Origin: Corynebacterium amycolatum
GTDB lineage: Bacteria > Actinomycetota > Actinomycetes > Mycobacteriales > Mycobacteriaceae
Direction: 5' to 3' (one strand)
DNA: 32,000 nucleotides
NCBI RefSeq assembly: GCF_049243625.1
Contig: NZ_CP046975.1
The notes beneath the pieces were generated by a model, which had not been told where the DNA came from, did not search any database, and saw nothing but the letters and a program-made list of their open reading frames with translations. The number at the start of each line of letters is the position of its first letter. The stretch's first letter is position 1. Made by a program: the position numbers and the translations under genes. Below are positions 5,121 through 24,872 of the stretch, piece by piece.

Positions 5121-6206
5121 TTAAGACACCGCAGGACGATTCATTACCAATTGTAGAGTGCCATCTTTTCGCTCAACGACCAACCTGGCATTTCTGTCAG
5201 CACCATCGCGCCCGCGGGTCACCGGCACTTCCCCCTGGCCGTGATAGCGGTGCACGAGCGCCATAACCATGTCGATCTGTTTACTGCTGGGCTCGGCACC
5301 CGCTTGCCTCAACCAACGAGCGAGGACGCGCACCGCGATGGCGTCGTCAAGCTCAGCGACCCCTCGCACAGACAGGCTCCCGCTTGCCGACGTCACTTCC
5401 TCCCCCAGCAGCGCATCCAGAGCCGACTCGGCGTGAGCGTCCAAAAAGTCATTGTCGACTGCTGCAATCCCCGCAGTCTTAGCGAGATTTTCCGCAACTC
5501 CCGGACCCAGCTCCTGCTCCAGCAGCGGCAAAATCGTCTTTCGAACCCGGACACGGGCGTAATGGTCGTCCTGATTGTGTGGGTCGTGCCAGACTTTTAG
5601 GCCCAGCTCTTCACAGCAGCGCTGAGTGTCGGTGCGTCGCACACCGAGCAGCGGACGCAGAATCCGAGTCCCGTCCGACCACGTGAGATTGTCTCTGATA
5701 GCGGACAGCGCCTGCGGGCCGCCCCCTCTGGCCAGCCGCAGCAAAACTGTTTCCGCCTGGTCGTCCAACGTGTGGGCGAGCATCAGTGCCGCACCTCGAG
5801 ATTGGGCAATCTGCCGTAGGACTCGGTGTCGAGCCAAACGCGCCTCGTATTCGGGACCGCGGTCGGAATCGTTATTGATATCGACCGCGATAACCTCGGC
5901 CGTAGCCCCCATCCCCCGAGCCATGGTGGCGGCACGCTCGGCGACTTCTGCAGAGCCCTGCTGAAGCTGATGATCAACGACGACGGCGTGAACGTTGCGG
6001 CCGGCCAGTGCCCCCTTGGACCCGAAAGCTTCCGCACAGGCCCCGGCGGTCAGGGCGAGCGAATCCGCACCGCCGGAAAGCCCAATGACGATACCGCTGC
6101 CCAACTCCTGCCCCACCTGCGGCACTATCGCGCGAACAGCTTGCCGAATGATGAGGAAATGAGGGCTGCGGTCCGGCCAAAAAGGTCTAGCCAACGCGCC
6201 CACCAC
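5121..6206 (-). CDS. tilS: tRNA(Ile)-lysidine synthase
   Basis: PP-loop motif GLSGGADSLAL. Position between the amidase gene and hpt matches the mesJ-hpt-ftsH order. The start is uncertain (GTG 6206 or 6203, or TTG 6194); all three overlap the end of the upstream amidase gene. Confidence 0.88.
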   Translation of the reverse strand: MVGALARPFWPDRSPHFLIIRQAVRAIVPQVGQELGSGIVIGLSGGADSLALTAGACAEAFGSKGALAGRNVHAVVVDHQLQQGSAEVAERAATMARGMGATAEVIAVDINNDSDRGPEYEARLARHRVLRQIAQSRGAALMLAHTLDDQAETVLLRLARGGGPQALSAIRDNLTWSDGTRILRPLLGVRRTDTQRCCEELGLKVWHDPHNQDDHYARVRVRKTILPLLEQELGPGVAENLAKTAGIAAVDNDFLDAHAESALDALLGEEVTSASGSLSVRGVAELDDAIAVRVLARWLRQAGAEPSSKQIDMVMALVHRYHGQGEVPVTRGRDGADRNARLVVERKDGTLQLVMNRPAVS

Positions 6207-7467
6207 TTGCGATGGTTTCCATCGCTGTAAGCAGAATTCGCTCCTGAGTCGGGCGCGCGATTAGCTGCACCGGCAATCCAGAAGTCGGCTCCACAACGAT
6301 GCCGGCCGGGAATCCCAGGTAATTCCACGTCGAAACGTAAGGGGTGAAGCGCAGATTGGACAACAGGTTCACAATCCAGGGCATGCGATGCCATGCGCGG
6401 ATCCGCGGTGGATTCTTGGCCAGAGCCGGAGTAATCAAGATGGTGTCACCCGGCAGCTCACGCTCGATGCGGGCGCCATCGCGTGCCACTTGGCGGCCAT
6501 TGATTGTGAAACGCAGCAAGCGCCCAATGCCAGCGTGGACTCGGTTGCGCCACTCCAGGTGATCCGGGCACGGCTCGTCACGAAGCTGATCTGCCACCCC
6601 CGCAGTCCAGCGCGCGAGCATCGGCAGCGGGTTCAGCGAGTACGGCATGTTCTTTTCCGTGACGGCAAAGCCCTTGTCCGCGAATACTCTCGCCGCCTGT
6701 TGCGCCGCATCGACGTACTCCGGTGCAGCCTTTAACCCGAATACGGGCGCAGTGGTGTCCACGCTGACGGCGAAGTTTTCAGGCAGGGTCTTCGCCGGAT
6801 CCTCCGCATCCACCATGCCATTTGTGAGGATCTTGGTAATCAGGCGCAAGTCCTCGTTGTTGACTGTGAGCACCCCTTGGACAGACATTCCGTACCAGTC
6901 ATTGCCGCCCACGCGCCCCGGCATTGTTCCCGGGGTCGCCTTCAGGGTCGAAAGCCCGCAGCACGCTGCAGGGATACGCAGCGACCCCATGCCGTCGTTG
7001 CCCTGCGCAAACGGAACCATCCCAGCGGCGACAGCCGCTGCGGATCCGCCGGAGGACCCACCCGGAGTGTGCCCCGGCAGAATCGGATTATCGACGGCCA
7101 GCCCCGGCAGCGTCGTCGTCCCCCACGTACAGAACTGCGGATTCACCGTAGTTCCCACCGCGATTGCACCGGCGCTAGTCAACTGCTGGACAAACGGGTT
7201 CTCTAGAGCAGTGTTTTCCTTCAGCGCGAATGGCACACCTGCGAGCGGCAACTCCGAGAGGTTCTCGCTGTGCTCGAGTTCCCGCGCAACCTGCAGAGCC
7301 CTATCCGCCCACACTTCACGGAAGGCATGAATCCCTCCATCCAGTCTGGCGATAGCGTCGAGACTGCGCTGCACGCTGTCGACCGGGCTTAGCTTTCCCT
7401 CGCGAACCTGCGCGGCAATCTCGTGGACGGTGGGCAAGTTCCTAATCGCGGAAGTGTGAGAGGCCAT
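6187..7467 (-). CDS. Amidase-signature (AS) family amidase, substrate unknown
   Basis: 426 aa. Catalytic Lys context GVPFALKEN, GGSSGGSAAAVAAG (cis-Ser), and GNDGMGSLRIPAA (nucleophile Ser). GAGGAG Shine-Dalgarno about 10 nt upstream of the ATG at 7467. Confidence 0.85.
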   Translation of the reverse strand: MASHTSAIRNLPTVHEIAAQVREGKLSPVDSVQRSLDAIARLDGGIHAFREVWADRALQVARELEHSENLSELPLAGVPFALKENTALENPFVQQLTSAGAIAVGTTVNPQFCTWGTTTLPGLAVDNPILPGHTPGGSSGGSAAAVAAGMVPFAQGNDGMGSLRIPAACCGLSTLKATPGTMPGRVGGNDWYGMSVQGVLTVNNEDLRLITKILTNGMVDAEDPAKTLPENFAVSVDTTAPVFGLKAAPEYVDAAQQAARVFADKGFAVTEKNMPYSLNPLPMLARWTAGVADQLRDEPCPDHLEWRNRVHAGIGRLLRFTINGRQVARDGARIERELPGDTILITPALAKNPPRIRAWHRMPWIVNLLSNLRFTPYVSTWNYLGFPAGIVVEPTSGLPVQLIARPTQERILLTAMETIASGGRVG

Positions 7468-10048: not shown

Positions 10049-10059
10049 ATCAACTACAA

Positions 10060-10090
10060 CTGCCCTGCCTACCTGCAGGGCAGTTTTTCA
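10060..10090 (+). terminator. Intrinsic terminator after the rhodanese gene
   Basis: CTGCCCTGC (10060-10068) pairs with GCAGGGCAG (10075-10083), a perfect 9-bp stem with a 6-nt loop, followed by TTTTTCATTTATTT. Confidence 0.8.
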
Positions 10091-10192
10091 TTTATTTACC
10101 CACCCCAAAGCACCGACCTTCTAACAATCCGCAGGCAAACAGGGGCATTATTAGTTGGCCATGTCCCATTATTGATGGTTCCCCAGATTGTC

Positions 10193-10198
10193 TAGTAT
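10193..10198 (+). promoter_or_regulatory. Candidate -10 hexamer TAGTAT; leaderless-type promoter for the marR-NRPS operon
   Basis: TAGTAT, then 7 nt, then ATG at 10206. CATTATT direct repeats at 10146-10152 and 10167-10173 (21-bp period) lie just upstream and could be an operator. Confidence 0.35.
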
Positions 10199-10205
10199 GG
10201 GAAGT

Positions 10206-11060
10206 ATGTCTGATTCATCCGTACTTTCCTCGGCAGACTCCGCCGACGCCAGCGGTGGTGTGGCAGCCGACGTAGGCGCGAAGGTGCCTGCTGTCGACGC
10301 ACAGAGCGGCACCAAGGCGAAGAAGGCTCGCAAGGGGGCGAAAGCCAAAAACAAGGCCAGTGCTAAGGCCAGAACTAAGTCCAAGTGCAAGCCCGGCTCC
10401 GCAAGCGAACCCGCCGTCGCACCGGCGGCCCTGCGCAAATCCGCGTCCTGGTGTCTGGCAAAGCTCGACGCGGCTGTCCGTACCAGTGTCAACGCGGCTC
10501 TTGGCCGCACTCAGATTGAGTCGATTTCCATCCGCGGGTATTGGGTTCTGGAGGCCATCGCCGATGGCGGCGACATGGCTCAAACCGAGCTGAGCGCACT
10601 GCTCGGCATGGATCGCTCTGACATGGTTCGCCTAATCGACTCTCTGGAGTCGGCAAATCTAGTCGAGCGCACCCGGGACTCCAAAGATCGTCGCCGCCAG
10701 CTCATCGCGCTGACAGAAACGGGCAACACCACCCGCGCATCTCTGCGACGCTCACTCCGCAGAGCCGAGCGCGCCGCCGTCTCCGAATGTGCACCCGAGG
10801 TACGCGCACTGCTTGCATCGCTTGCCGACGACTCCGCTGCAAGCCACGAAAATGACACCGGTACTCCGCTTTCTGACAATGCCGGCGCGAAGAATCCTGA
10901 GACCGCTACCCCAGAGGCCACGGCCACTGAGACAGACACCAAGGGCATGGCGGAGAATAAGACGCAGGCGACGTCGTCAAGCGATGCCCAGCGTCCTAAA
11001 CGGAAGAAGTCGAAGAAGAAGAAAAAGCGCAAGAAGAATAAGAAGGGGGCTCTCAAGTGA
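10206..11060 (+). CDS. MarR-family transcriptional regulator with Lys/Ala-rich N-terminal and poly-Lys C-terminal tails
   Basis: Winged-HTH core YWVLEAIADGGDMAQTELSALLGMDRSDMVRLIDSLESANLVERTRDSKDRRRQLIALTETG. N-terminal region KAKKARKGAKAKNKASAKARTKSKCK; C-terminus KRKKSKKKKKRKKNKKGALK. Alternative in-frame starts: TTG 10188 and ATG 10197. The stop overlaps the next gene's start (GTGA). Confidence 0.85.
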   Translation: MSDSSVLSSADSADASGGVAADVGAKVPAVDAQSGTKAKKARKGAKAKNKASAKARTKSKCKPGSASEPAVAPAALRKSASWCLAKLDAAVRTSVNAALGRTQIESISIRGYWVLEAIADGGDMAQTELSALLGMDRSDMVRLIDSLESANLVERTRDSKDRRRQLIALTETGNTTRASLRRSLRRAERAAVSECAPEVRALLASLADDSAASHENDTGTPLSDNAGAKNPETATPEATATETDTKGMAENKTQATSSSDAQRPKRKKSKKKKKRKKNKKGALK

Positions 11061-14000
11061 CAACCACTGAAGCGAAGTTCCTACGCACTACGGAACAGCC
11101 GCTTGAGCGCACACTCATTGACATTGTCCGGGCGACCGCGCGAAGGTTCCCTGAGGCTGAGGCCATCGATGACGGCGAGGTTGTCGTCACGTATGCGGAA
11201 TTGATCAACGAGATTGATTCCACAGCTACGTGGCTCTACGAACAGGGCATCCGTCGCGGCGACCGCATTGGTGTGCGGATGCCGTCGGGAAGCCGCGAGC
11301 TCTACCTGGCAATTTTGTCCATTATGGCTGCCGGTGCCGCCTACGTTCCGGTGGATGCGGACGACCCCGACGAGCGTGCCGAAATGGTCTTCGGCGAGGC
11401 CGGTATCGCCGGTTACTTCGATGCTGAAGGCCTACATTTGGCTGGCTCCACGGCACGTAATCGCCCCCGCCCGCTGGACTCCGACGCCGACTCCGACGAG
11501 GAAGAGACGGAACCGACGCCGCCAAGCGCACGCGAGATTATCTCGCAGGAGCCCACTCCTGACGATGACTGCTGGATTATTTTCACCTCTGGCTCCACCG
11601 GTAAGCCCAAGGGCGTGGCGGTCACCCACCGCAGCGCCGCCGCTTTTGTCGATGCGGAGGCCCGATGGTTCTTGGCCAACCACCCGGAAGGGCCGCTCGG
11701 CCCGGACGACCGCGTTCTCGCCGGCCTGTCCGTCGCCTTCGACGCCTCCTGTGAGGAAATGTGGCTGGCCTGGCGAAATGGTGCCTGCCTGGTGCCGGCC
11801 CCGCGTTCGCTGGTGCGCTCCGGTGTGGACCTGGGCCCATGGCTGATTTCCCGCCACATCACCGCTGTTTCCACGGTGCCGACACTGGCCGGCCTGTGGC
11901 CCGCCGAGGCACTCGACAGCGTGCGCCTGCTCATCGTCGGCGGCGAGGCCTGCCCGCAAGAGCTGGTCGAGCGACTGTCCACCCCAGAACGCGAAATGTG
12001 GAACACCTACGGCCCCACTGAGGCCACCGTCGTGGCCTCCGGCATCGAGCTGAAGCCTGGCAAGCCCGTGACCATTGGTTTTCCTCTGGACGGCTGGGAC
12101 CTCACCGTTATCGACGAGGAGGGCAACCCCGTCCTACCGGGCACCAAGGGCGAGCTGGTCATTGGCGGTGTGGGACTCGCACGATACCTGGATCCGGAGA
12201 AGGACGCCGAGAAGTACGCGCCGCTGCCAGCCCTGGGCTGGGAGCGCGCGTACCGCACCGGCGACCACGTCATCATGGATGAGGACGGACTGTACTTCAC
12301 CGGCCGCGTCGACGATCAGGTGAAAATCGGCGGGCGCCGTATTGAGCTCGGCGAGGTCGAGGCGCACCTGGCTGCCCTCCCCGGCGCTACTCAGGCGACT
12401 GTCGTGGTGCAGAAGACCGGTGCTGGCGACTCCATCCTGGTCGGCTACGTCGGCGCCGGTGGCGACGCCGCAGCCATGGACTACGACAAGTGCATGGACA
12501 CTCTCCGCGATGCCATGCCAGCCGCGATGGTGCCACGCCTGCACATCATGGATGAGCTGCCGGTACGCACCTCCGGCAAGGTCGACAAGGCGGCGTTGCC
12601 GTGGCCACTGCCTGCGCGTGCGGGGGAGGGCGACGTCGACAAGCTGAACCCTGTGGAGAAATGGCTGTCCGATATCTGGGCGGACGTGCTGTCCGTACCT
12701 GCGCCCGGCGCGGCCTCGGACTTCTTCGCCCTGGGCGGCACGTCGCTGGCGGCGGCGAGCGTCATCGCGCGTATTCGTCAGCGCGCCCCACAGGTCGCCG
12801 TGCGCGATCTCTACGACCACCCACGCCTGGGAAACCTCGCCGAGGAACTGGTCGCTCGCGGTTTCATCAGCGACGACATGCTTGCCGACGACGCCAGCGA
12901 CCCCACCGCCCACCTGGAAAAGGTGCCCGAGCCGACGCCTGTCTCCCGCAAGACCCGTTGGGCGCAGGTCGGCCTCATGGTGCCGCTGCAGTGGGCACGT
13001 GGTATGCGCTGGGTAACGTGGCTTGCGATTATCAACTGGGTTATCGGCGGGCCGCTGGCACTACCAGGCTGGTTGGTGGCTGTACTGGCCGTGTTGTTCC
13101 TGACCCCGCTGGGGGTTATGCCCATCAACGCGGCGACGACACGCCTGCTCACGCGCAACATCGCCCCGGGTGATTACCCGCGTGGCGGCTCGGTGCATCT
13201 GTGCCTATGGGCGGCTGAACGCCTGGCAGAGAGCTCCGGCGCCCACTCAGTGGCGGGCGCTCCGTTCGTGCTGTGGTATGCCCGCATGCTGGGTGCCCGC
13301 ATTGGTAAGGGCGTGAATCTGCACGCGCTGCCGCCGGTGACGGGTCTGGTCAAACTGGATGATTACTGCTCGATCGAGCCGGAGGTAGACCTGTCCGGAT
13401 ACTGGGTCGATGGTGATGTCGTCCACGTCGGCGAGGTCACTATTGGCAAGCACGCCCGCATCGGTGCCCGTTCAACGCTGCTGCCCGGCGCGCGTATCGG
13501 CAATGACGCTCACATCGAGGCGGGTTCCACCGTCACCGGTGAAAAAAAGGTCAAGGCTGGTGCGCGCTGGTCGGGTTCCCCGGCTCGCAAGGTCGGCCGG
13601 TCCAAGCACCGCTTCCCGGAGGAAGTCCCGCCGGCGCGTCGCCACTGGGTGGCTATCTACGGTCTTACCGCTGTCTTGCTGACGCTGGTGCCGCTGTCCG
13701 CTGCGGTCGCGATGGCTGCTGTCATCGGTTGGGGCACGGGACTTATCGACGGCACCACCGAGCTAACCACCTCGAATCTCTGGCCAACGCTGGGCAGCGC
13801 CGTGCTGTGGGCTATTCCCGCCACCTTCGTCGGTGTTGCGGTGTATGCCCTGCTGACGCTGATTCTCGTGCGCCTGTTCAGCATCGGCCTGAAGCCGGGA
13901 GTGTTCCCGGTGCGTTCGCGCGTGGGTTGGCAGTCCTGGGCGACAATTCGCCTGATGGATGCTGCTCGTCACGACCTGTTCTTCATCTACGCCTCCATGC

Positions 14001-15106
14001 TGACTCCACTGTGGCTGCGTGCACTGGGCGCCCAGATTGGTCACGACAGCGAGGTCTCCACCGCGATTGGTATTCCGAAGTTCTTGCACGTCAAGGACGA
14101 GTCCTTCTTGGCTGACGACACCATGGTCGGCAGCTACGAGCTCGGCGGCGGTTGGCTGCTGGTAGGCGACTCCCGCATCGGCAAGCGCGCCTTCCTGGGC
14201 AACTCCGGCATCACGCTTCCGGAACGCAAGCTGGCGAAGAACTCGCTGGTGGCCGTGCTGTCCTCTACTCCGAAGAAGACCAAGTCCGGTTCCAACTGGT
14301 GGGGTTCGCCACCAGAGCGCATGCGCCGTGTGGGAACCGTCTCCAGTGATGAGTCGGCGCAGACCTACCGTCCGACTACGGGGTTGAAGGTCGCCCGCAG
14401 CATTGTGGAGACGCTGCGTGTCCTGGCGCCGATGGTCTCTCTCATGCTGGCGACGATCACGCTGTTTAGCCTGCAGGGAATTGGTATGTTCACCGCGGAG
14501 CTGGTCACTGCAGGTGGCGTTGGCGCTGCCCTGCTCGGCCTGGTGGTCGCGTGGCTGCTCTCCCCTGCCGTGCTACTGATTATTGGTGCGCTGGGGCTGC
14601 TCATCACGGTCGTGGCCAAGTGGGTGTGCGTCGGCAAGCACAAGCCCGGTGACCACCCGCTGTGGAGTAAGTTCGTCTGGCTCAATGAGCTGCAGGATAC
14701 GTTCGTCGAAATGGTCGCCGCGCCGTGGTATCTGAACCCGGCGATGGCCACCGGCGGTATCGCACGCGCGATGCGGCTGCTCGGCGCGAACGTTGGCCAC
14801 GGCGTGTGGCTGGAGACGTACTGGCTGCCCGAGACCGACCTGATCACGATCGAGCGAGGTGCTTCTGTCGGCCGCGGTTGTGTCGTTCAGACGCACCTGT
14901 TCACCGACCGCGTGATGACGCTCGACACCGTCCACATCGGACACGGCTCCGTCCTGGGACCGCACTCAGTCGCACTGCCGGCATCTGTGCTTGACGACGG
15001 CTGCCGCGTCGAACCCGGTTCTCTCGTTATGCGCGGTGACCACGTTCCTGCGCATACCTCCTGGCGAGGTAACCCGATTGAGCCGGTAGTGGCAAAGAAG
15101 AAGTAG
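11057..15106 (+). CDS. Pls/PosA-type single-module NRPS (cationic homopoly-amino-acid synthetase-like): A domain, T domain, then three (2 TM + hexapeptide-repeat) units
   Basis: 1349 aa. A-domain cores A1-A10 are present (FTSGSTGKPKGV, FDAS, NTYGPTE, YRTGD, GRVDDQVKIGGRRIELGEVE, SGKVDK). Carrier site is DFFALGGTS(563)L. No HHxxxDG or GxSxG domain. Three hydrophobic helix pairs alternate with LbH-like segments. Purine-rich AAGAAGGGGG lies 7 nt upstream of GTG 11057. Confidence 0.9.
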   Translation: MTTTEAKFLRTTEQPLERTLIDIVRATARRFPEAEAIDDGEVVVTYAELINEIDSTATWLYEQGIRRGDRIGVRMPSGSRELYLAILSIMAAGAAYVPVDADDPDERAEMVFGEAGIAGYFDAEGLHLAGSTARNRPRPLDSDADSDEEETEPTPPSAREIISQEPTPDDDCWIIFTSGSTGKPKGVAVTHRSAAAFVDAEARWFLANHPEGPLGPDDRVLAGLSVAFDASCEEMWLAWRNGACLVPAPRSLVRSGVDLGPWLISRHITAVSTVPTLAGLWPAEALDSVRLLIVGGEACPQELVERLSTPEREMWNTYGPTEATVVASGIELKPGKPVTIGFPLDGWDLTVIDEEGNPVLPGTKGELVIGGVGLARYLDPEKDAEKYAPLPALGWERAYRTGDHVIMDEDGLYFTGRVDDQVKIGGRRIELGEVEAHLAALPGATQATVVVQKTGAGDSILVGYVGAGGDAAAMDYDKCMDTLRDAMPAAMVPRLHIMDELPVRTSGKVDKAALPWPLPARAGEGDVDKLNPVEKWLSDIWADVLSVPAPGAASDFFALGGTSLAAASVIARIRQRAPQVAVRDLYDHPRLGNLAEELVARGFISDDMLADDASDPTAHLEKVPEPTPVSRKTRWAQVGLMVPLQWARGMRWVTWLAIINWVIGGPLALPGWLVAVLAVLFLTPLGVMPINAATTRLLTRNIAPGDYPRGGSVHLCLWAAERLAESSGAHSVAGAPFVLWYARMLGARIGKGVNLHALPPVTGLVKLDDYCSIEPEVDLSGYWVDGDVVHVGEVTIGKHARIGARSTLLPGARIGNDAHIEAGSTVTGEKKVKAGARWSGSPARKVGRSKHRFPEEVPPARRHWVAIYGLTAVLLTLVPLSAAVAMAAVIGWGTGLIDGTTELTTSNLWPTLGSAVLWAIPATFVGVAVYALLTLILVRLFSIGLKPGVFPVRSRVGWQSWATIRLMDAARHDLFFIYASMLTPLWLRALGAQIGHDSEVSTAIGIPKFLHVKDESFLADDTMVGSYELGGGWLLVGDSRIGKRAFLGNSGITLPERKLAKNSLVAVLSSTPKKTKSGSNWWGSPPERMRRVGTVSSDESAQTYRPTTGLKVARSIVETLRVLAPMVSLMLATITLFSLQGIGMFTAELVTAGGVGAALLGLVVAWLLSPAVLLIIGALGLLITVVAKWVCVGKHKPGDHPLWSKFVWLNELQDTFVEMVAAPWYLNPAMATGGIARAMRLLGANVGHGVWLETYWLPETDLITIERGASVGRGCVVQTHLFTDRVMTLDTVHIGHGSVLGPHSVALPASVLDDGCRVEPGSLVMRGDHVPAHTSWRGNPIEPVVAKKK

Positions 15107-15109
15107 CCC

Positions 15110-15163
15110 GGCTTGTGTAGGGCTTTGTAGGAGCTTTGTTGGGGCCTTGTTGGGGCCTTGTTG
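15110..15163. repeat. About five tandem copies of a degenerate 11-bp unit (GGGCCTTGTTG-like)
   Basis: GGCTTGTGTAG / GGCTTTGTAG / GAGCTTTGTTG / GGGCCTTGTTG / GGGCCTTGTTG, read directly. Starts 4 nt after the NRPS stop codon. Confidence 0.85.
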
Positions 15164-15168
15164 GCACA

Positions 15169-15283
15169 ACGGGCTGCAAATGTGAAACTGTGCAAGCTTA
15201 TAGCACTTTCAAGCCATTTTTCGGGCAATTTTTGCTATAAACGCAGTCAGTAACTCACATTGGCCCGCTGCCGCCAGCCATAA
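15169..15283 (+). repeat. 115-bp intergenic repeat, copy A (long imperfect hairpin)
   Basis: Aligns without gaps to 19315-19429 with 92/115 identities; the first 25 nt are identical (ACGGGCTGCAAATGTGAAACTGTGC). Apical stem is TTATAGCA (15198-15205) with TGCTATAA (15233-15240). Outer stem is AATGTGA (15179-15185) with TCACATT (15255-15261). Confidence 0.85.
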
Positions 15284-15306
15284 ACGCAGTCAGTTACTCG
15301 CATTGG
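15237..15306. repeat. 27-bp direct repeat with 43-bp period (duplicated 3' module of repeat copy A)
   Basis: ATAAACGCAGTCAGTAACTCACATTGG (15237-15263) versus ATAAACGCAGTCAGTTACTCGCATTGG (15280-15306); 25/27 identical. Confidence 0.9.
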
Positions 15307-15325
15307 GGCTAAGTAGGGCTAAGTA
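15306..15325. repeat. Perfect 10-bp tandem duplication GGGCTAAGTA x2
   Basis: Read directly at 15306-15315 and 15316-15325. Confidence 0.95.
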
Positions 15326-15412
15326 GCAAAAGGTGCCCACCCGGCGACACGCCGAGCGGACACACTTTTGCTACTTAACCCGCTATTTATTTTTCGGCTT
15401 TTTGGTTCCGGC

Positions 15413-17722
15413 TTACTCTGCTAGCTGCAAACGAGCCTGCTTCGCTGCGGCTACCAATACTTTCAGTGAAGCCGTAACCTCTTCCCAACCTCGGGTCTTC
15501 AGACCGCAGTCCGGATTGATCCACAGCAAGCTGGGGTCAACACTTTCGAGCGCATCTTCCACGAGCTGGCTGACTTCTCCGTCCGTCGGCACGCGAGGCG
15601 AGTGGATGTCCCAGACGCCTGGACCAATCCCACGAACGTATCCCTCATCCTTCAGCGCTGCGAGCACCTGCATGCCGTTGCGAGCTGCTTCGATGGACGT
15701 GACATCGGCGTTGAGTTCATCGACGGTGTCAATGAGCTCATTGAAGTCCGAGTAGCACATATGCGTGTGAATCTGAATCTCGTCAGCCACGCCAGAGGTA
15801 GCCAGGCGGAAGGACCCCACAGCCCACTTCAGGTAGGCGGACTGGTCCGCTTCATTCAGGGGCAACAACTCGCGAATGGCTGGCTCATCGACCTGCACAA
15901 TCTGCGCTCCAGCGGCCACGAGATCTGCAATCTCATCGCGCAAAACCAGCGCAACATTATCCGCAGTGTCACCGATTGGCTGGTCATCACGGACAAACGA
16001 CCATGCCAACATGGTCACTGGCCCAGTGAGCATTCCCTTGACGGGAAGGTCAGTCATGTTTGCCGCTGCCTTGTACCACTGCACCGTCATTGGCTCTGGC
16101 CTGGTGATATCACCGTAGAGGATCGGCGGCCGCACGCAGCGGGAACCATAGCTTTGGACCCAGCCATTGGCGGTCGCGAGGTAGCCGTCCAGCTGCTCCG
16201 AGAAGTACTGGACCATGTCGTTGCGCTCAGGTTCACCGTGAACCAGCACATCGAGCCCCAGTTCTTCCTGCTGTTCAATGGCAGATCGAATTTCAGCGAG
16301 CATTGACGACTCGTAGTCAGCTGGGGTGAGCTCTCCCGAGCGCAGCTGTGCACGTGCACGTCGAATGCTATTGGTCTGCGGGAAGGAACCGATTGTGGTG
16401 GTCGGCAGCGGAGGCAGGTTAAGGGTCTCAGCCTGAGCCGCCTGGCGAGCTGCAAACGGGGAACGGTTACGGTCGCTATCCTCGATTGCCGCCAAAGCTT
16501 CACGAACTTCAGGCTTAACAATCCGCTTCGATTCTGCCCTCGATGCCAGTGCTGCCCGGGACTCCCTCAACACCTTCAAATCCGCGGCATCGAGTTGGCG
16601 GTCATTCAACTTAGCATCAAGCGCCCTCGCCAAGAGTGTCACCTCGGCGATTTTCTCATCGCCGAAGGCCAGCCACTGCAGCACCTCGGCTTCTTCTTCG
16701 CTCGGGTTTTCCGAGGCCAGGGAGTACGGGACATGTAGCAGCGAACAGCTAGTCGACACCGCGATGGGGCCTCGAGCTGCCAGCTTCTCCAGCGTCGCCA
16801 GGGCTGCATCCAAGTCGGTGCGCCACACATTACGACCATCGACGATTCCCGCGACCAGCAGTTCCTTGCCAGTCCAATGCGGCAGCTCGGAGCTACCAGC
16901 TACCAGGTCGCAACCAATGGCCTGCACGCCTGTGCCAGAAAGGGTTTTCAGTGCCTGACCACCATCACCAAAGTAGGTCTGCACCCACAATTTGGCATTT
17001 GCAGACTCCGACACGCCAGCCAATTTCTCGTAGACCTGGCGAGTCCTAGCAAGTGTCACTTCGTCGAGGTCAGTGACCAATACCGGCTCATCGAGCTGAA
17101 TCCACTCAAAGCCTTTCTCTCCCAGTTGAGCAATGACGTCAGCGTACGCATCGGTCAACTTTTCCAAAAGGCCAAGTGGGTTAGAACCATCGTCGGTACG
17201 CGACAGGCTCAAGTAGGTCACTGGACCAATCAAATGTGGACGCAACATGGTTGTGGCGCCATTGTTCAAGCTGCAGGAATCGTCCAACCAGTCAGTGAGG
17301 TCGATGGTGAATTCCGTATTGGCCGACAGTTCCGGAACGATGTAGTGGTAATTAGTGTCGAACCACTTGGTCATTGCGGATGCCGGCTGCGTCTTTGTAC
17401 CGCGAGCGGTGGCGAAGTAGTGGTTAATCCATTCTGGCAGATTGGAACCGTCCGTTTTCGGGGCATCCTGGAAGCGGGCTGGAAGCACTCCAAGCAGCGC
17501 CGATGTATCCAGCATGGAGTCGTAGAACGAGCGCCCAATTGTCGGAACCGAGTCGATTCCCGCCTTCAGCGCCGCGCCGATGTAGCTATTGACAGTATTG
17601 CGCGCCGTCGCGGCCAGCAAGCCGCCGGTCGCCGGGTCGCGCCAGTAGTTTTCCAGAGCTCTTTTGAGCTCACGATTACGCCCTATCCGCGGAATGCCCG
17701 CGAGGGTTGCGTGAATTGCCAT
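15413..17722 (-). CDS. metE: Cobalamin-independent methionine synthase (5-methyltetrahydropteroyltriglutamate-homocysteine methyltransferase)
   Basis: 769 aa with the two-domain MetE layout. C-terminal zinc-site context IQIHTHMCYSDF and PDCGLKTR. Confidence 0.97.
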   Translation of the reverse strand: MAIHATLAGIPRIGRNRELKRALENYWRDPATGGLLAATARNTVNSYIGAALKAGIDSVPTIGRSFYDSMLDTSALLGVLPARFQDAPKTDGSNLPEWINHYFATARGTKTQPASAMTKWFDTNYHYIVPELSANTEFTIDLTDWLDDSCSLNNGATTMLRPHLIGPVTYLSLSRTDDGSNPLGLLEKLTDAYADVIAQLGEKGFEWIQLDEPVLVTDLDEVTLARTRQVYEKLAGVSESANAKLWVQTYFGDGGQALKTLSGTGVQAIGCDLVAGSSELPHWTGKELLVAGIVDGRNVWRTDLDAALATLEKLAARGPIAVSTSCSLLHVPYSLASENPSEEEAEVLQWLAFGDEKIAEVTLLARALDAKLNDRQLDAADLKVLRESRAALASRAESKRIVKPEVREALAAIEDSDRNRSPFAARQAAQAETLNLPPLPTTTIGSFPQTNSIRRARAQLRSGELTPADYESSMLAEIRSAIEQQEELGLDVLVHGEPERNDMVQYFSEQLDGYLATANGWVQSYGSRCVRPPILYGDITRPEPMTVQWYKAAANMTDLPVKGMLTGPVTMLAWSFVRDDQPIGDTADNVALVLRDEIADLVAAGAQIVQVDEPAIRELLPLNEADQSAYLKWAVGSFRLATSGVADEIQIHTHMCYSDFNELIDTVDELNADVTSIEAARNGMQVLAALKDEGYVRGIGPGVWDIHSPRVPTDGEVSQLVEDALESVDPSLLWINPDCGLKTRGWEEVTASLKVLVAAAKQARLQLAE

Positions 17723-17770
17723 GATCTCGTGATTTCCTCGTCAGTCGTGATCAGCATCGGATATGAAATT

Positions 17771-17925
17771 GCACAACCGGCAGGCATTCGGACTTGTCAT
17801 CACTGAAAAGATTGGTTATCAACGCGTCGGATAAACCAAAGTTCTGGCGGTGATGCTTACCGTTGCGGGACAGTTCCGGACTTGCACCGGGATTCCCCTG
17901 CATAACTCGAGGGCCTATTGCGCTA
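17771..17925 (-). promoter_or_regulatory. Cobalamin (B12) riboswitch in the metE leader
   Basis: Minus strand reads GCAGGGGAATCCCGGTGCAAGTCCGGAACTGTCCCGCAACGGTAAGC (core GGGAA..GGTG.AA.TCC...CCCGC.AC.GTAA). The B12-box-like AAGTCCGAATGCCTGCCGG lies at about 17777-17797. Boundaries are approximate. Confidence 0.8.
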
Positions 17926-18147
17926 GGCTAAAAACACACCTTGCGCGGAAAACGTGCGATATGCAGCACTTTCCTTTATGAACTCCTTCGAGGCGGCTGT
18001 GGATGTGAAGTATATCGCAATATACAAATATCTCATTCACTTAGCCCCTCCCCAAGCCTTTGCTTTGAGCTCTCCTGCTGGGGCCAAAGTGATTAAGCTC
18101 GTAGTCATAAAGGCTATTTATCCCACCTTTTCAAGGAGTGACCTCGA

Positions 18148-19508: not shown

Positions 19509-20408
19509 CTAGTCACCAATCTGGTCGCGGCCACGCTTAACAATCTTCGGATCCGGAGTACCGACCAGCTCGTGGTCCTTCTCCGTGTACTCAAACTTGC
19601 TCAGCACGTAACGCATTGCGTTGATGCGGGCACGCTTCTTGTCGTTGGACTTAATGGTGATCCACGGGGACTCATCGGTATCCGTGTAACGGAACTGCTC
19701 TTCCTTCGCGCGGGTGTAGTCACCCCAACGATCCAGCGATGCGAGGTCCATCGGAGAGAGCTTCCACTGACGTACCGGGTCGACCTGGCGAATAGCGAAG
19801 CGAGTGCGCTGCTCTTTCTGGGTCACCGAGAACCACAGCTTGGTCAGCGAAATACCGGAGCCCAAAATCATGTTCTCCAGCATCGGAACCTCACGCAGGA
19901 ACTCTGCGTGCTGCGACTCAGTACAGAAACCCATCACGCGCTCAACGCCCGAACGGTTGTACCAAGAACGGTCGAAGAAGACGATCTCGCCAGCGCACGG
20001 AAAGTGCTCAATGTAGCGCTGGAAGTACCACGAGGTGGACTCACGCGGCGACGGCTTTTCCAGAGCCACGGTACGAGCACCACGCGGATTCAGGTGCTCG
20101 TTAAAGCGCTTAATGGTACCGCCCTTACCAGCGGCGTCACGGCCTTCGAAGAGGATGATGTGCTTCTGACCAGTTTCCTTGGTCCAGTTCTGCCACTTCA
20201 GAAGCTCAATCTGCAGCTTCCTCTTAATAGACTCGTATTCCTTGCGCGTCATGCGCTCCTCGTACGGGTAGCCATCGCGCCAGGTATCAACCCGCTCACC
20301 GTCTGGAGTGACCAGTACCGGATCGTCCTCATCAGAATCATCGACGACGTAACCTTCGGTCTTCGCCAAATCGACGATGTGGAATTCCTCTTCATTCTTG
20401 TCAGCCAT
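19509..20408 (-). CDS. ppk2: Polyphosphate kinase 2
   Basis: PPK2 Walker A FEGRDAAGKGGTIKR plus lid/Walker B regions. I prefer ATG 20408 (MADKNEEEF...), which has AGGATAAAGGG upstream. The track ORF starts at GTG 20438. Confidence 0.93.
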   Translation of the reverse strand: MADKNEEEFHIVDLAKTEGYVVDDSDEDDPVLVTPDGERVDTWRDGYPYEERMTRKEYESIKRKLQIELLKWQNWTKETGQKHIILFEGRDAAGKGGTIKRFNEHLNPRGARTVALEKPSPRESTSWYFQRYIEHFPCAGEIVFFDRSWYNRSGVERVMGFCTESQHAEFLREVPMLENMILGSGISLTKLWFSVTQKEQRTRFAIRQVDPVRQWKLSPMDLASLDRWGDYTRAKEEQFRYTDTDESPWITIKSNDKKRARINAMRYVLSKFEYTEKDHELVGTPDPKIVKRGRDQIGD

Positions 20409-20548
20409 ACCCTTTATCCTACTGAATTTCTCTGCCACACGTCCCCCATGCGGGTGCCCTTACCTGCAATTTCCCAGCAGTTAACGTTCCGTCTTACCGA
20501 AACTGAGGGGTGGGACTGCACGCAGCGACCGTCGATAAGCACTGCGCG

Positions 20549-20554
20549 TACAAT
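20549..20554 (+). promoter_or_regulatory. Candidate -10 hexamer TACAAT; leaderless-type promoter
   Basis: TACAAT, then 7 nt, then ATG at 20562. No Shine-Dalgarno. Confidence 0.4.
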
Positions 20555-20561
20555 AAATGCC

Positions 20562-21038
20562 ATGTTGTTATCCGAGGCTCTTGCCGCACGATCCGAGGTC
20601 TCTGACCGTCTCGCTGAAATTAATCGCCGTCTCTCGCTGGTTGCTCAGGTGCAGGAAGGCGATACGCCTGATGAAGATCCGCAAGCACTTATCGCCGAAG
20701 CCGAGCGTCTGATGACACGCTTCGAATGGCTGGTGCGCTCGATTAACGCAACGAATTCCGCTACTGCCTTCGAGGACGGAACGCTTAGCGACGCACTTGC
20801 GAAGCGCGACCACCTGCTAACACGGCGGCGGTTCTACACCTCCGCAGCCGATCAGGGCTCTGGGCGGCGGGATCGATACTCAGCTTCGGAGATTCGCTAT
20901 GTCGCCACCGTGGATATCCGGTCGCTGCGCCAGAAAGCCGACAAGGCAGCGAAGGAATACCGGGACTTGGATACCCGTATTCAGCAGGCGAACTGGTCGA
21001 CGGAGCTTATAGAGGCCGAGAATAAGCCGGCCGAGTAG
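20562..21038 (+). CDS. Small conserved protein, DIP1984/septicolysin-like family as I recall it; function unknown
   Basis: 158 aa (MLLSEALAARSEVSDRLAEINRRL...NSATAFEDGTLSDALAKRD...RYSASEIRYVATVD...KEYRDLDTRIQQANWSTELIE). It is the 3' third of the 488-aa track ORF 19572..21038; the upstream part of that ORF is antisense to ppk2. Confidence 0.8.
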   Translation: MLLSEALAARSEVSDRLAEINRRLSLVAQVQEGDTPDEDPQALIAEAERLMTRFEWLVRSINATNSATAFEDGTLSDALAKRDHLLTRRRFYTSAADQGSGRRDRYSASEIRYVATVDIRSLRQKADKAAKEYRDLDTRIQQANWSTELIEAENKPAE

Positions 21039-23486: not shown

Positions 23487-24872
23487 ATGAGCATTATTAA
23501 TAAGGAACTCACGGACGCCCTGCGAGACCACATCTCCAGCCAACGCGAGACCATCCGCACCCAGCTGACCGAGCTGGTGGCTTTCCCCTCCGTACACGGC
23601 ACCGAAGAAACCAAACAGGCTTGCATTGACGCAGCTCAGACGGTTACCGAGATGTACGCAGAGCTGGGCATCGAACTGAAGGCGCACCACACCGTCGACG
23701 GCTCGATTGCACTGTCGGGTTTCGTCCCCGGGTCGTCGGAAAGCGCGAAGACCGTACTGCTCTACTCCCATTACGACGTCCAGCCGGCGGGCGACGAGTC
23801 CGCTTGGACCGCAGATCCGTGGACGCTCGACGAGCGCGACGGTCGCTGGTACGGCCGCGGTACTGCCGACTGCAAGGGCAACGTGGTCATGCATCTAGCT
23901 GCGCTGCGCGCGCTGCGTGACGACGCGCTTGCAGGCCGCGTCGACATGCCAAACATCAAGCTCATCGTGGAAGGTTCCGAGGAGCGCGGATCGGCGGGCC
24001 TGAACAACCTCATCGCCACGCAGCCGGAGCTTTTCGACGCCGACGTTATCCTCATTGCGGATGTCGGCAATGCCGAGGTTGGCCAACCGACACTCGTAAC
24101 CACTCTGCGCGGCACCGCCGATGTGGAAGTTCGCGTCGATGCGCTTGAACAGCCTGTTCACTCGGGCATGTTCGGCGGCGCGGCTCCGGATGCACTCGCG
24201 GCGCTGATTCGTATGCTCGACAGCCTGCGCGATGAAAATGGCTTTACCTCTATTGACGGCTTGGACTGCTCGCAGCACTGGGAGGGCCTGGATTACGCGC
24301 CAGAAACTTTCCGTGCCGATGCGGGTGTGCTTGACGGCGTAGACCTGATTAGCAACGAGGACACTTCCGTCTCCGACCTGACCTGGGCTCGTCCGTCTGT
24401 GATTGTGACCGGAATCGATTGTCCACCAGCGACCAATGCTGTCAATGCAATCTCATCGACCGCTATGGCGCACATCAACTTCCGCATCCCAGGCGGCGTC
24501 GACCCGGCCGAAGCACAGGACGCACTGGAGAATCACCTGCGCGCACATGCTCCGTGGGGCGTGAAGGTGACGGTTGAGCGCGACGAGTTGGCGAACCCAT
24601 TCCGGGCCAATGTTGAGGGCAAAGTTGTGCAACTGGTTGCCGACAGCCTGTCGGCCGCCTACGGCAAGGAAACCGCAAGCATGGGCGAGGGCGCCTCGAT
24701 CCCTCTGTGCGCCACTTTGTTGGAGGCCGTACCAGGTGCTGACATCGCGCTCTACGGCGTGGAAGAGCCACAGGCCCGCATTCACTCGGCCGACGAGTCG
24801 GTGGACCCGAACGAGATTCGCGACATCGCTATTGGCGAGGCAGTTTTCTTGGCTTCCGTCAACGGAATTTAA
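23487..24872 (+). CDS. M20-family metallopeptidase (dipeptidase / ArgE-DapE-CPG2 superfamily)
   Basis: 461 aa with LLYSHYDVQPAG, WYGRGTADCKGN, IVEGSEERGS and IHSADES, which are the typical M20 metal-ligand contexts. Confidence 0.9.
   Translation: MSIINKELTDALRDHISSQRETIRTQLTELVAFPSVHGTEETKQACIDAAQTVTEMYAELGIELKAHHTVDGSIALSGFVPGSSESAKTVLLYSHYDVQPAGDESAWTADPWTLDERDGRWYGRGTADCKGNVVMHLAALRALRDDALAGRVDMPNIKLIVEGSEERGSAGLNNLIATQPELFDADVILIADVGNAEVGQPTLVTTLRGTADVEVRVDALEQPVHSGMFGGAAPDALAALIRMLDSLRDENGFTSIDGLDCSQHWEGLDYAPETFRADAGVLDGVDLISNEDTSVSDLTWARPSVIVTGIDCPPATNAVNAISSTAMAHINFRIPGGVDPAEAQDALENHLRAHAPWGVKVTVERDELANPFRANVEGKVVQLVADSLSAAYGKETASMGEGASIPLCATLLEAVPGADIALYGVEEPQARIHSADESVDPNEIRDIAIGEAVFLASVNGI

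Follow-up and report, generated by a model that had tools for sequence, protein, structure and literature searches.

Synthetases (Pls) that make epsilon-poly-L-lysine (hereafter epsilon-PL), an antimicrobial polymer, are single-module membrane enzymes, two of which serve as the closest described references for this study. The Pls of Streptomyces albulus NBRC 14147 (BAG68864.1; Protein Data Bank [PDB] entry 7WEW) combines an adenylation (A) and a thiolation (T) domain with three repeats of a transmembrane (TM) helix pair and a soluble C region, a layout written A-T-(2TM-C)x3; it has no condensation or thioesterase domain and carries the specificity code DAESIGTVVK, and its gene is followed by the peptidase gene pldII. 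The Pls of Corynebacterium variabile DSM 44702 (WP_014008652.1) has the same architecture and code, is described as encoded in one operon together with the gene for a peptidase, and made epsilon-PL of 26 to 35 residues when expressed in S. coelicolor (Jiang et al., PMC8117764). PosA, the delta-poly-L-ornithine synthetase of Acinetobacter baumannii, also belongs to the TIGR02353 family, and AlphaFold and RoseTTAFold likewise predict for it a polymerisation domain of six helices and three left-handed beta-helix (LbH) regions; it stands on a distant branch of the family, has the code DMEHNGTVSK with Met at position 2, and activates ornithine (Orn) (PMC10522769). Here we analyze a 32,000-nucleotide stretch of Corynebacterium amycolatum DNA (contig NZ_CP046975.1), hereafter the window, in which a plus-strand gene at 11057-15106 encodes a 1349-amino acid (aa) Pls-family protein. 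We conclude that this protein probably is an epsilon-PL synthetase ortholog that works by the mechanism of its family.

The synthetase gene and its substrate pocket

The open reading frame (ORF) starts with GTG and is present as a first-pass annotation, made from the sequence alone, had described it. The gene is a C. amycolatum-group Pls-family ortholog, real and intact, and its product belongs to the Pls/PosA family of cationic homo-poly-amino-acid synthetases. TIGR02353, the NCBIfam profile of the terminal domain of that family and the one that the first-pass annotation had proposed to search, matched aa 637-1341 over profile positions 3-695 of 695, far above its curated cutoff (707.6 vs 423.1 bits; E 1.7e-212). 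On the adenylation domain, TIGR01733 (NCBIfam) scored 338 bits. Pfam placed AMP-binding at aa 25-376, PP-binding at aa 536-597, hexapeptide repeats at aa 794-828 and a weak LbH match at aa 1270-1328; the nonribosomal peptide synthetase (NRPS) domains among these are limited to AMP-binding and PP-binding, i.e., a single A followed by a single T. All ten adenylation cores had been claimed, and a regular-expression search recovered A1-A5 and A7-A10, with A6 (GELVIGGVGLARYL) one residue short of the ARGYL consensus. The carrier motif FALGGTS was found at aa 557-563, inside the PP-binding match; it ends in the predicted Ser563 (codon 12743-12745), the site of phosphopantetheine attachment, which is invariant in an alignment of 14 Corynebacterium orthologs. 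The reported lack of canonical condensation and thioesterase domains also held: the protein contains no HHxxxDG motif, it has no match to the Condensation or Thioesterase Pfam domains, and its sole GxSxG is an incidental GASVG at 1268 within a beta-helix. Because this motif search found none, hidden condensation or thioesterase motifs were rejected.

The best match in the PDB was 7wew_A, the A domain of the S. albulus epsilon-poly-L-lysine synthase (aa 8-520, E 1.8e-173), which shares 62% identity with the A domain of the 1349-aa protein. Read from this alignment, the Stachelhaus code of D229, A230, E233, S272, I293, G295, T317, V325, V326 and K508 is DAESIGTVVK, as proposed earlier and as read for S. 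albulus Pls, and all ten positions are invariant in the 14 orthologs. The nearest lysine code had been given as DAESIGSV..; the assignment to Lys was right and the Ser was not, as the Pls code has Thr at that position and is an exact match. In NRPSpredictor2 analyses, six experimentally confirmed Pls (S. albulus, Kitasatospora, Epichloe, Claviceps and C. variabile enzymes included) and the C. amycolatum protein WP_005510160.1 all had DAESIGTVVK with 'lys' as the nearest code (Data Set S3, PMC8117764). Since WP_005510160.1 is ∼99% identical to the protein studied here, the basic substrate expected in the first-pass annotation agrees with this prediction. Position 2 of the code has been found to track substrate length, with Ala for Lys, Met for Orn, and Phe for diaminopropionate or diaminobutyrate (Dap/Dab) (Patel and Gulick 2023, PMC10522769); here it is Ala, the Lys state of the Pls/PosA family. 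The Orn pocket of PosA is not matched, with further differences at positions 4, 5 and 9, and the codes described for the poly-beta-Lys (DGESISVVNK) and gamma-PDDAB (DFECLSCVSK) polymerases are different again (PMC8117764, PMC10522769). Judged by its code, the pocket is Lys-type and identical to those of the validated enzymes.

Between cores A2 and A3 (aa ∼139-165), the A domain also carries an acidic stretch that had been singled out as an unusual insert. It exists, and the corresponding loop is short in S. albulus, so that the 1349-aa protein differs from S. albulus Pls in this respect. However, both its length and its sequence vary among Corynebacterium orthologs, and we therefore rejected it as a functional novelty, regarding it as a hypervariable loop and a species-level peculiarity.

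The gene is already known at the level of annotation and prediction, and its annotation brings nothing new. WP_070840971.1, from Corynebacterium sp. HMSC074C04, is identical (100%) to the protein studied here, which falls in a 90% identity cluster of 348 members, many from C. amycolatum; every member bears the name 'Pls/PosA family non-ribosomal peptide synthetase', and NCBI and UniRef have the protein named already. The 2021 survey of Jiang et al. included the C. amycolatum ortholog WP_005510160.1 (GCF_000173655.1) and gave it the same Lys code; this ortholog is from another strain, is 1350 aa long rather than 1349, differs at 2 of its 147 printed N-terminal residues, has the same 8-angstrom signature ending in VVASG, and is catalogued and predicted only (Data Set S3, PMC8117764). 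Orthologs with 57-80% identity occur throughout Corynebacterium, C. glutamicum included. The spread of the ortholog, which the first-pass annotation had left to a database search, is thus wide within the genus; as for characterisation, we found it annotated, catalogued and predicted, and found no biochemical study. A literature search for polylysine in C. amycolatum returned nothing. Statements of prevalence rest on published surveys: pls was detected in 10 of 12 Corynebacterium isolates (Jiang et al., PMC8117764), and the 'NAPAA' cluster (antiSMASH) was reported in most Corynebacterium isolates from skin (PMC12542688), in each of the 30 C. glutamicum strains surveyed (PMC11078359), and as the commonest cluster of the C. 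striatum pangenome (PMC10486106). Homologs have been annotated in Nocardia as well, e.g., nfa3790 in N. farcinica (PMC4035055). C. flavescens Mu128 has two different polylysine synthetase genes, whose best matches are to the C. variabile and S. albulus references, respectively (Data Set S3, PMC8117764), and more than one pls gene per Corynebacterium genome is therefore possible. A 1276-aa homolog with 59% identity is labelled Staphylococcus chromogenes; it lies on a 288-kb contig that is most likely a mislabelled or contaminating Corynebacterium contig.

The C-terminal membrane part and the proposed mechanism

The layout A-T-(2TM-C1)-(2TM-C2)-(2TM-C3) proposed in the first-pass annotation was borne out by hydropathy, profile comparison and structure prediction. 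The hydropathy profile has three hydrophobic blocks. An AlphaFold2 (AF2) model of aa 630-1349, the segment that had been suggested for modelling, was built from an alignment of 33 orthologs (pLDDT 88.9, pTM 0.89) and contains six long helices (aa 631-663, 671-699, 863-898, 905-942, 1108-1149 and 1155-1191), which alternate with three short-strand LbH regions. The three units, each consisting of a TM pair and a soluble region, are mutually homologous by hhalign (probabilities 98.6, 98.9 and 96.5%; E 1e-15, 2e-17 and 7e-10; 98.6% for U1-U2 and 96.5% for U2-U3). A polymerisation domain of six helices and three LbH regions has been described for the Pls/PosA family (PMC10522769; PMC8117764). Each helix pair, as read from the sequence, has basic residues at its cytoplasmic ends and a short connecting loop that is uncharged or acidic; this charge pattern would put the A domain, the T domain and every soluble region on one side, so that the predicted topology is one of three TM pairs with soluble regions that are all cytoplasmic.

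The nearest solved folds for the C regions are LbH acetyl- and acyltransferases (Foldseek E ∼1e-4, probability 1.0), among them galactoside and maltose O-acetyltransferases, AntD and serine acetyltransferase, each C region matching in fold at 15-23% identity. Neither a sequence search nor Foldseek turned up a whole polymerisation domain among the solved structures of the PDB, where only isolated LbH acyltransferases were found, and a literature search for a cryo-electron microscopy structure of Pls returned nothing. A packing of three beta-helices around a pseudo-threefold axis resembles LbH acyltransferase trimers (PMC10522769), but here the three "subunits" are fused in one chain with membrane helix pairs between them, and the proposed donor is a carrier-bound aminoacyl thioester rather than acyl-CoA.

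If the enzyme works as its family does, the cytoplasmic A domain would adenylate L-lysine and hand the activated lysine on to the T domain, whose phosphopantetheine arm at Ser563 would carry it as a thioester. The C-terminal 720 residues would then act as one membrane-embedded polymerisation domain, made up of three long-helix pairs alternating with three homologous beta-helix regions, that in repeated rounds moves lysyl groups onto the epsilon-amino group of either free lysine or a free chain under elongation and lets the polycation pass to the outside. Control of pls expression probably lies with the MarR-family protein of the gene directly upstream. The mechanism of S. albulus Pls is that reported by Yamanaka et al. 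2008 (as cited in PMC8117764 and PMC4035055). We infer the epsilon linkage, the polymer length, the export and the regulation by MarR from the characterised relatives in S. albulus and C. variabile.

The MarR partner and the surrounding locus

Coordinates of the features of the locus are collected in Table 1. A two-gene unit with a MarR partner, set amid housekeeping genes, had been described from the sequence; this arrangement holds in the window and is conserved across the genus. The MarR stop codon overlaps the GTG start of pls (GTGA at 11057-11060), an operon-like arrangement, and this translationally coupled MarR gene is a further difference from S. albulus Pls. The MarR gene lies directly upstream of pls in Corynebacterium loci of our sample (L001-L007, L009, L010 and L081) and in some Nocardia; in C. 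glutamicum the order is rhodanese gene, a gene for a 148-aa MarR and pls, with a gap of 7 nucleotides (nt) between the latter two. The mechanically called MarR ORF begins with TTG at 10188 and encodes 290 aa, but alignment with C. lactis and the conserved ATGTCTGATTC make ATG 10206 the likelier start, which corrects the earlier reading. In the 290-aa ORF the MarR domain lies at aa 118-170 (PF12802 MarR_2, 45.0 bits vs 27, 1.3e-11; PF01047, 38.5 bits vs a gathering score of 24.6, 1.1e-9).

Table 1. Positions of the pls gene, its domains and its flanking elements in the window
Feature	Position	Strand	Evidence or remarks
Intrinsic terminator after rhodanese gene	10058..10085	+	11-bp perfect stem AACTGCCCTGC/GCAGGGCAGTT, 6-nt loop, then TTTTCATTTAT
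Putative promoter/operator region of MarR-pls unit	10086..10205	+	Sequence blocks shared with C. lactis
MarR-family regulator gene; basic extensions specific to the lineage	10206..11060	+	Pfam MarR_2, MarR
Lys-rich C-terminal tail of MarR (KRKKSKKKKKRKKNKKGALK)	10995..11060	+	Read from sequence
pls-family gene, single-module membrane NRPS-like synthetase	11057..15106	+	TIGR02353, Pfam, 7WEW match
Adenylation domain, aa 8-520	11078..12616	+	7WEW alignment, TIGR01733, invariant code residues
Variable acidic loop between cores A2 and A3, aa ∼139-165	11471..11551	+	Inserted when compared with S. albulus
Thiolation (carrier) domain, aa 536-597	12662..12847	+	Pfam PP-binding, 1.9e-12
Helix pair TM1-TM2, aa 631-699	12947..13153	+	AF2 helices H2-34, H42-70; hydropathy peak
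C1 soluble region with left-handed beta-helix, aa 700-862	13154..13642	+	Pfam Hexapep 794-828, hhalign to C2/C3, AF2, Foldseek
Helix pair TM3-TM4, aa 863-942	13643..13882	+	AF2 helices H234-269, H276-313; hydropathy
C2 soluble region, aa 943-1107	13883..14377	+	hhalign, AF2 model
Helix pair TM5-TM6, aa 1108-1191	14378..14629	+	AF2 helices H479-520, H526-562; hydropathy
C3 soluble region, aa 1192-1349	14630..15103	+	hhalign, AF2, weak Pfam LbH 1270-1328, invariant-residue audit
Convergent spacer pls/metE: long hairpin, short repeats	15107..15412	.	Sequence analysis

The strong terminator noted earlier at 10060-10090 was confirmed with slightly shifted ends, and it marks the upstream boundary of the MarR-pls unit. 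Between it and ATG 10206, the blocks conserved with C. lactis are ATTAnTTGG, CCCAnnATTGA and the -10-like TAGnAT; the last stands ∼8 nt before the ATG, a spacing that suggests a leaderless mRNA. The MarR protein has a Lys/Ala-rich N-terminal stretch (…KAKKARKGAKAKNKASAKARTKSK…, 10300-10400) and a poly-Lys C-terminal tail (KRKKSKKKKKRKKNKK). The MarR of C. lactis also has a Lys-rich tail, which the MarRs of other corynebacteria (148-158 aa) lack; such a tail could serve in DNA affinity. We also considered the run of Lys codons as a lysine-sensing translational device for pls, which is pure speculation and would be confined to the C. amycolatum/C. lactis lineage.

The downstream spacer is repeat-rich, as had been noted. 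It contains two copies of a 30-nt direct repeat (15234-15263 and 15277-15306), where chance would give 0. Also present are, near 15133-15165, a short tandem of TTGTTGGGGCC and, at 15316-15381, a long composite hairpin with T-rich flanks that is probably a bidirectional terminator. An Rfam scan of the flanking spacers assigned no family to the repeats of the pls/metE spacer and found only the cobalamin riboswitch of metE (RF00174, 46.1 bits, 17762-17933, minus strand), which lies upstream of the B12-independent metE (15413-17722) in a standard arrangement.

The neighborhood is housekeeping in nature, with ppa, the rhodanese gene, MarR and pls on the plus strand and folE, ftsH, hpt, tilS, an amidase gene and dacB on the minus strand. 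Beyond pls come the convergent metE and then genes for a Dyp peroxidase, a DIP1984-family (DUF6847) protein, GroEL, an M20 peptidase and an Mrp antiporter. The DIP1984-family gene (19572-21038, plus strand) is directly 3' of pls on the same strand in four other loci (L002, L004, L007 and L008); in the window, metE, the riboswitch and the Dyp peroxidase gene separate the two. Downstream of pls, C. lactis has another ORF with metE further on, and C. glutamicum has aldehyde dehydrogenase and PPK2 genes. As the gene looked GC-rich, recent horizontal transfer was considered, but it was rejected because the GC content at third codon positions (0.776) is within the 0.59-0.80 range of the neighbors (ppa, 0.804) and because the synteny is genus-wide.

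Product and role in the Corynebacterium clade

Homologs were collected in a scan of genome contigs that gave at least 80 loci, 11 from Corynebacterium and 69 from other genera, which we treat as a sample. The Corynebacterium loci sampled keep the order tilS-dacB / ppa-rhodanese-MarR-pls, and in at least 10 Mycobacterium, Mycolicibacterium, Dietzia and related loci ppa-dacB is found 2-5 kb upstream of pls. Among the loci listed, 68 of the 69 from outside Corynebacterium have a gene for an M1 zinc peptidase (PF01433, PF17900, HExxH-x18-E) no more than 6 kb from pls, and in 50 of these it abuts or overlaps the pls stop codon; it corresponds to the pldII partner described for Streptomyces and C. 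variabile. Since both the ppa-dacB linkage and the M1 peptidase extend beyond Corynebacterium, the position of pls would appear to be ancestral in Mycobacteriales and the peptidase to have been lost in Corynebacterium. The linked loci outside Corynebacterium are L019, L023, L024, L030, L044, L046, L049, L053, L059 and L064, and the M1 peptidase gene comes right after pls in several of them (e.g., L023, L024, L046, L053, L059 and L064).

Several observations weigh against a conventional epsilon-PL synthetase. First, the M1 peptidase gene was present in 0 of 11 Corynebacterium loci listed and was likewise missing from the C. glutamicum locus. In the window, which unlike S. albulus and C. variabile has no such gene beside pls, tblastn with the M1 peptidase found nothing better than E 0.7; the amidase (6187-7467) and M20 dipeptidase (23487-24872) genes were discarded as candidates for a PldII-type peptidase because they belong to unrelated families and are not adjacent. 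An adjacent PldII-type peptidase is, however, a typical rather than a strictly defining context of pls. Second, C. variabile Pls and the C. amycolatum ortholog share only ∼52% identity overall, with 62% for the A domain, and in a neighbor-joining tree of ∼400 A-domain residues (without bootstrap and with partial references, the C. variabile enzyme being represented by the ∼400 N-terminal residues in the supplement of PMC8117764) the 1349-aa protein falls in a monophyletic Corynebacterium clade apart from S. albulus and from the validated C. variabile Pls, which groups with Brevibacterium and Kocuria. The tree thus suggests a clade separate from the C. variabile enzyme. Third, a His in the C3 motif QTHLF-H-DRVM that is invariant in the 69 Pls of other genera is Gln or Thr throughout Corynebacterium (T1283 here, codon 14903-14905). 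Fourth, cultures of C. glutamicum yielded no detectable epsilon-PL (Jiang et al., PMC8117764), and we found no published product for the genus-wide clade in the literature.

The gene is nonetheless under purifying selection, with a dN/dS against C. lactis of 0.15 in every domain, and of the 321 positions that do not vary among the 69 homologs outside Corynebacterium, the 1349-aa protein keeps 303; on these two grounds the Corynebacterium clade is clearly functional. Other substitutions made clade-wide are R1209L, S1080N, W853F and G562T/S, the last at the residue before the phosphopantetheine serine, while the core motifs and that serine itself are invariant across the genus. The C. glutamicum proteome (Data Set S1, PMC8117764) includes a 1295-aa, 138.7-kDa protein, UPI000003AA00, detected at low abundance by 2 peptides, which we infer from its matching length and mass to be the native Pls homolog.

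The alternative that survives best, though we regard it as unlikely, is that of a lysine-activating enzyme whose product or role is another, making short or cell-associated oligomers or a polycation for the envelope of the producer (surface charge, cation homeostasis) instead of a secreted long-chain antimicrobial. Consistent with this, the gene is core-like, being present in 30 of 30 C. glutamicum strains (PMC11078359) and in most skin corynebacteria (PMC12542688), and in all Corynebacterium loci sampled its place is the same, following ppa-rhodanese-MarR, with the ppa-dacB linkage reaching into Mycobacterium, Mycolicibacterium and Dietzia. The contrast in the degrading M1 peptidase (0/11 vs 68/69 among the loci listed), the clade-specific substitutions, H1283 to Thr or Gln included, and the failure to detect epsilon-PL in C. 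glutamicum (PMC8117764) point the same way. Yet the pocket, the architecture and 94% of the family-invariant residues are unchanged, and the sequence points to no acceptor other than lysine or polylysine. Moreover, silence in the native host is a poor discriminator, as the bona fide C. variabile enzyme is also silent in its own host under laboratory conditions (PMC8117764). A more specific proposal, which we put forward tentatively and consider rather doubtful, is that the clade represents a vertically inherited, MarR-gated polycation synthase with a role in the physiology of the producer (envelope charge, stress response), possibly with an altered chain length or fate, and not a classical secreted antimicrobial. 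This proposal draws on the core-genome status of the gene, the ancient ppa-dacB linkage throughout Mycobacteriales, the complete loss of the peptidase, the clade-wide replacement of the His, and the undetectable epsilon-PL of C. glutamicum despite an apparent native enzyme.

It is very improbable that the gene is a cryptic or decaying relic retained without polymer synthesis. The clade has no reported product, it has lost both a peptidase partner and a family-invariant His, and the protein is of very low abundance in C. glutamicum, all of which would be expected of a relic; but a 4-kb ORF that is intact, a dN/dS of 0.15 in every domain, and core motifs and a phosphopantetheine serine invariant across the genus would not, and among the 348 sequences of the 90% cluster truncation arises only from partial contigs. 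Least probable of all is that the enzyme takes ornithine, Dab, Dap, beta-lysine or arginine as its cationic substrate and builds another homopolymer, for although such enzymes exist in the family and substrates are predicted imperfectly (the tools tried did not predict the substrate of PosA, whose nearest code is Lys and which yet uses Orn; PMC10522769), the ten code positions here are identical to those of six validated Lys enzymes, the codes of other polymerases differ at several positions, among them position 2 with its Ala here, and S. albulus Pls shares 62% identity in the A domain.

An epsilon-PL synthetase working by the family mechanism thus remains the reading that we favor for the C. 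amycolatum gene. Corynebacteria are dominant skin commensals as well as industrial workhorses, and nearly all carry pls under purifying selection. Should epsilon-polylysine be made by the clade on skin or in cheese, this would matter for antagonism within the microbiome and for preservative production in C. glutamicum; should the clade have another product, or one of use to the producing cell, the reading of 'NAPAA' clusters in thousands of actinobacterial genomes would have to be revised. The loss of the peptidase, the coupling to MarR and the substitution of the His offer concrete experimental handles on the clade.

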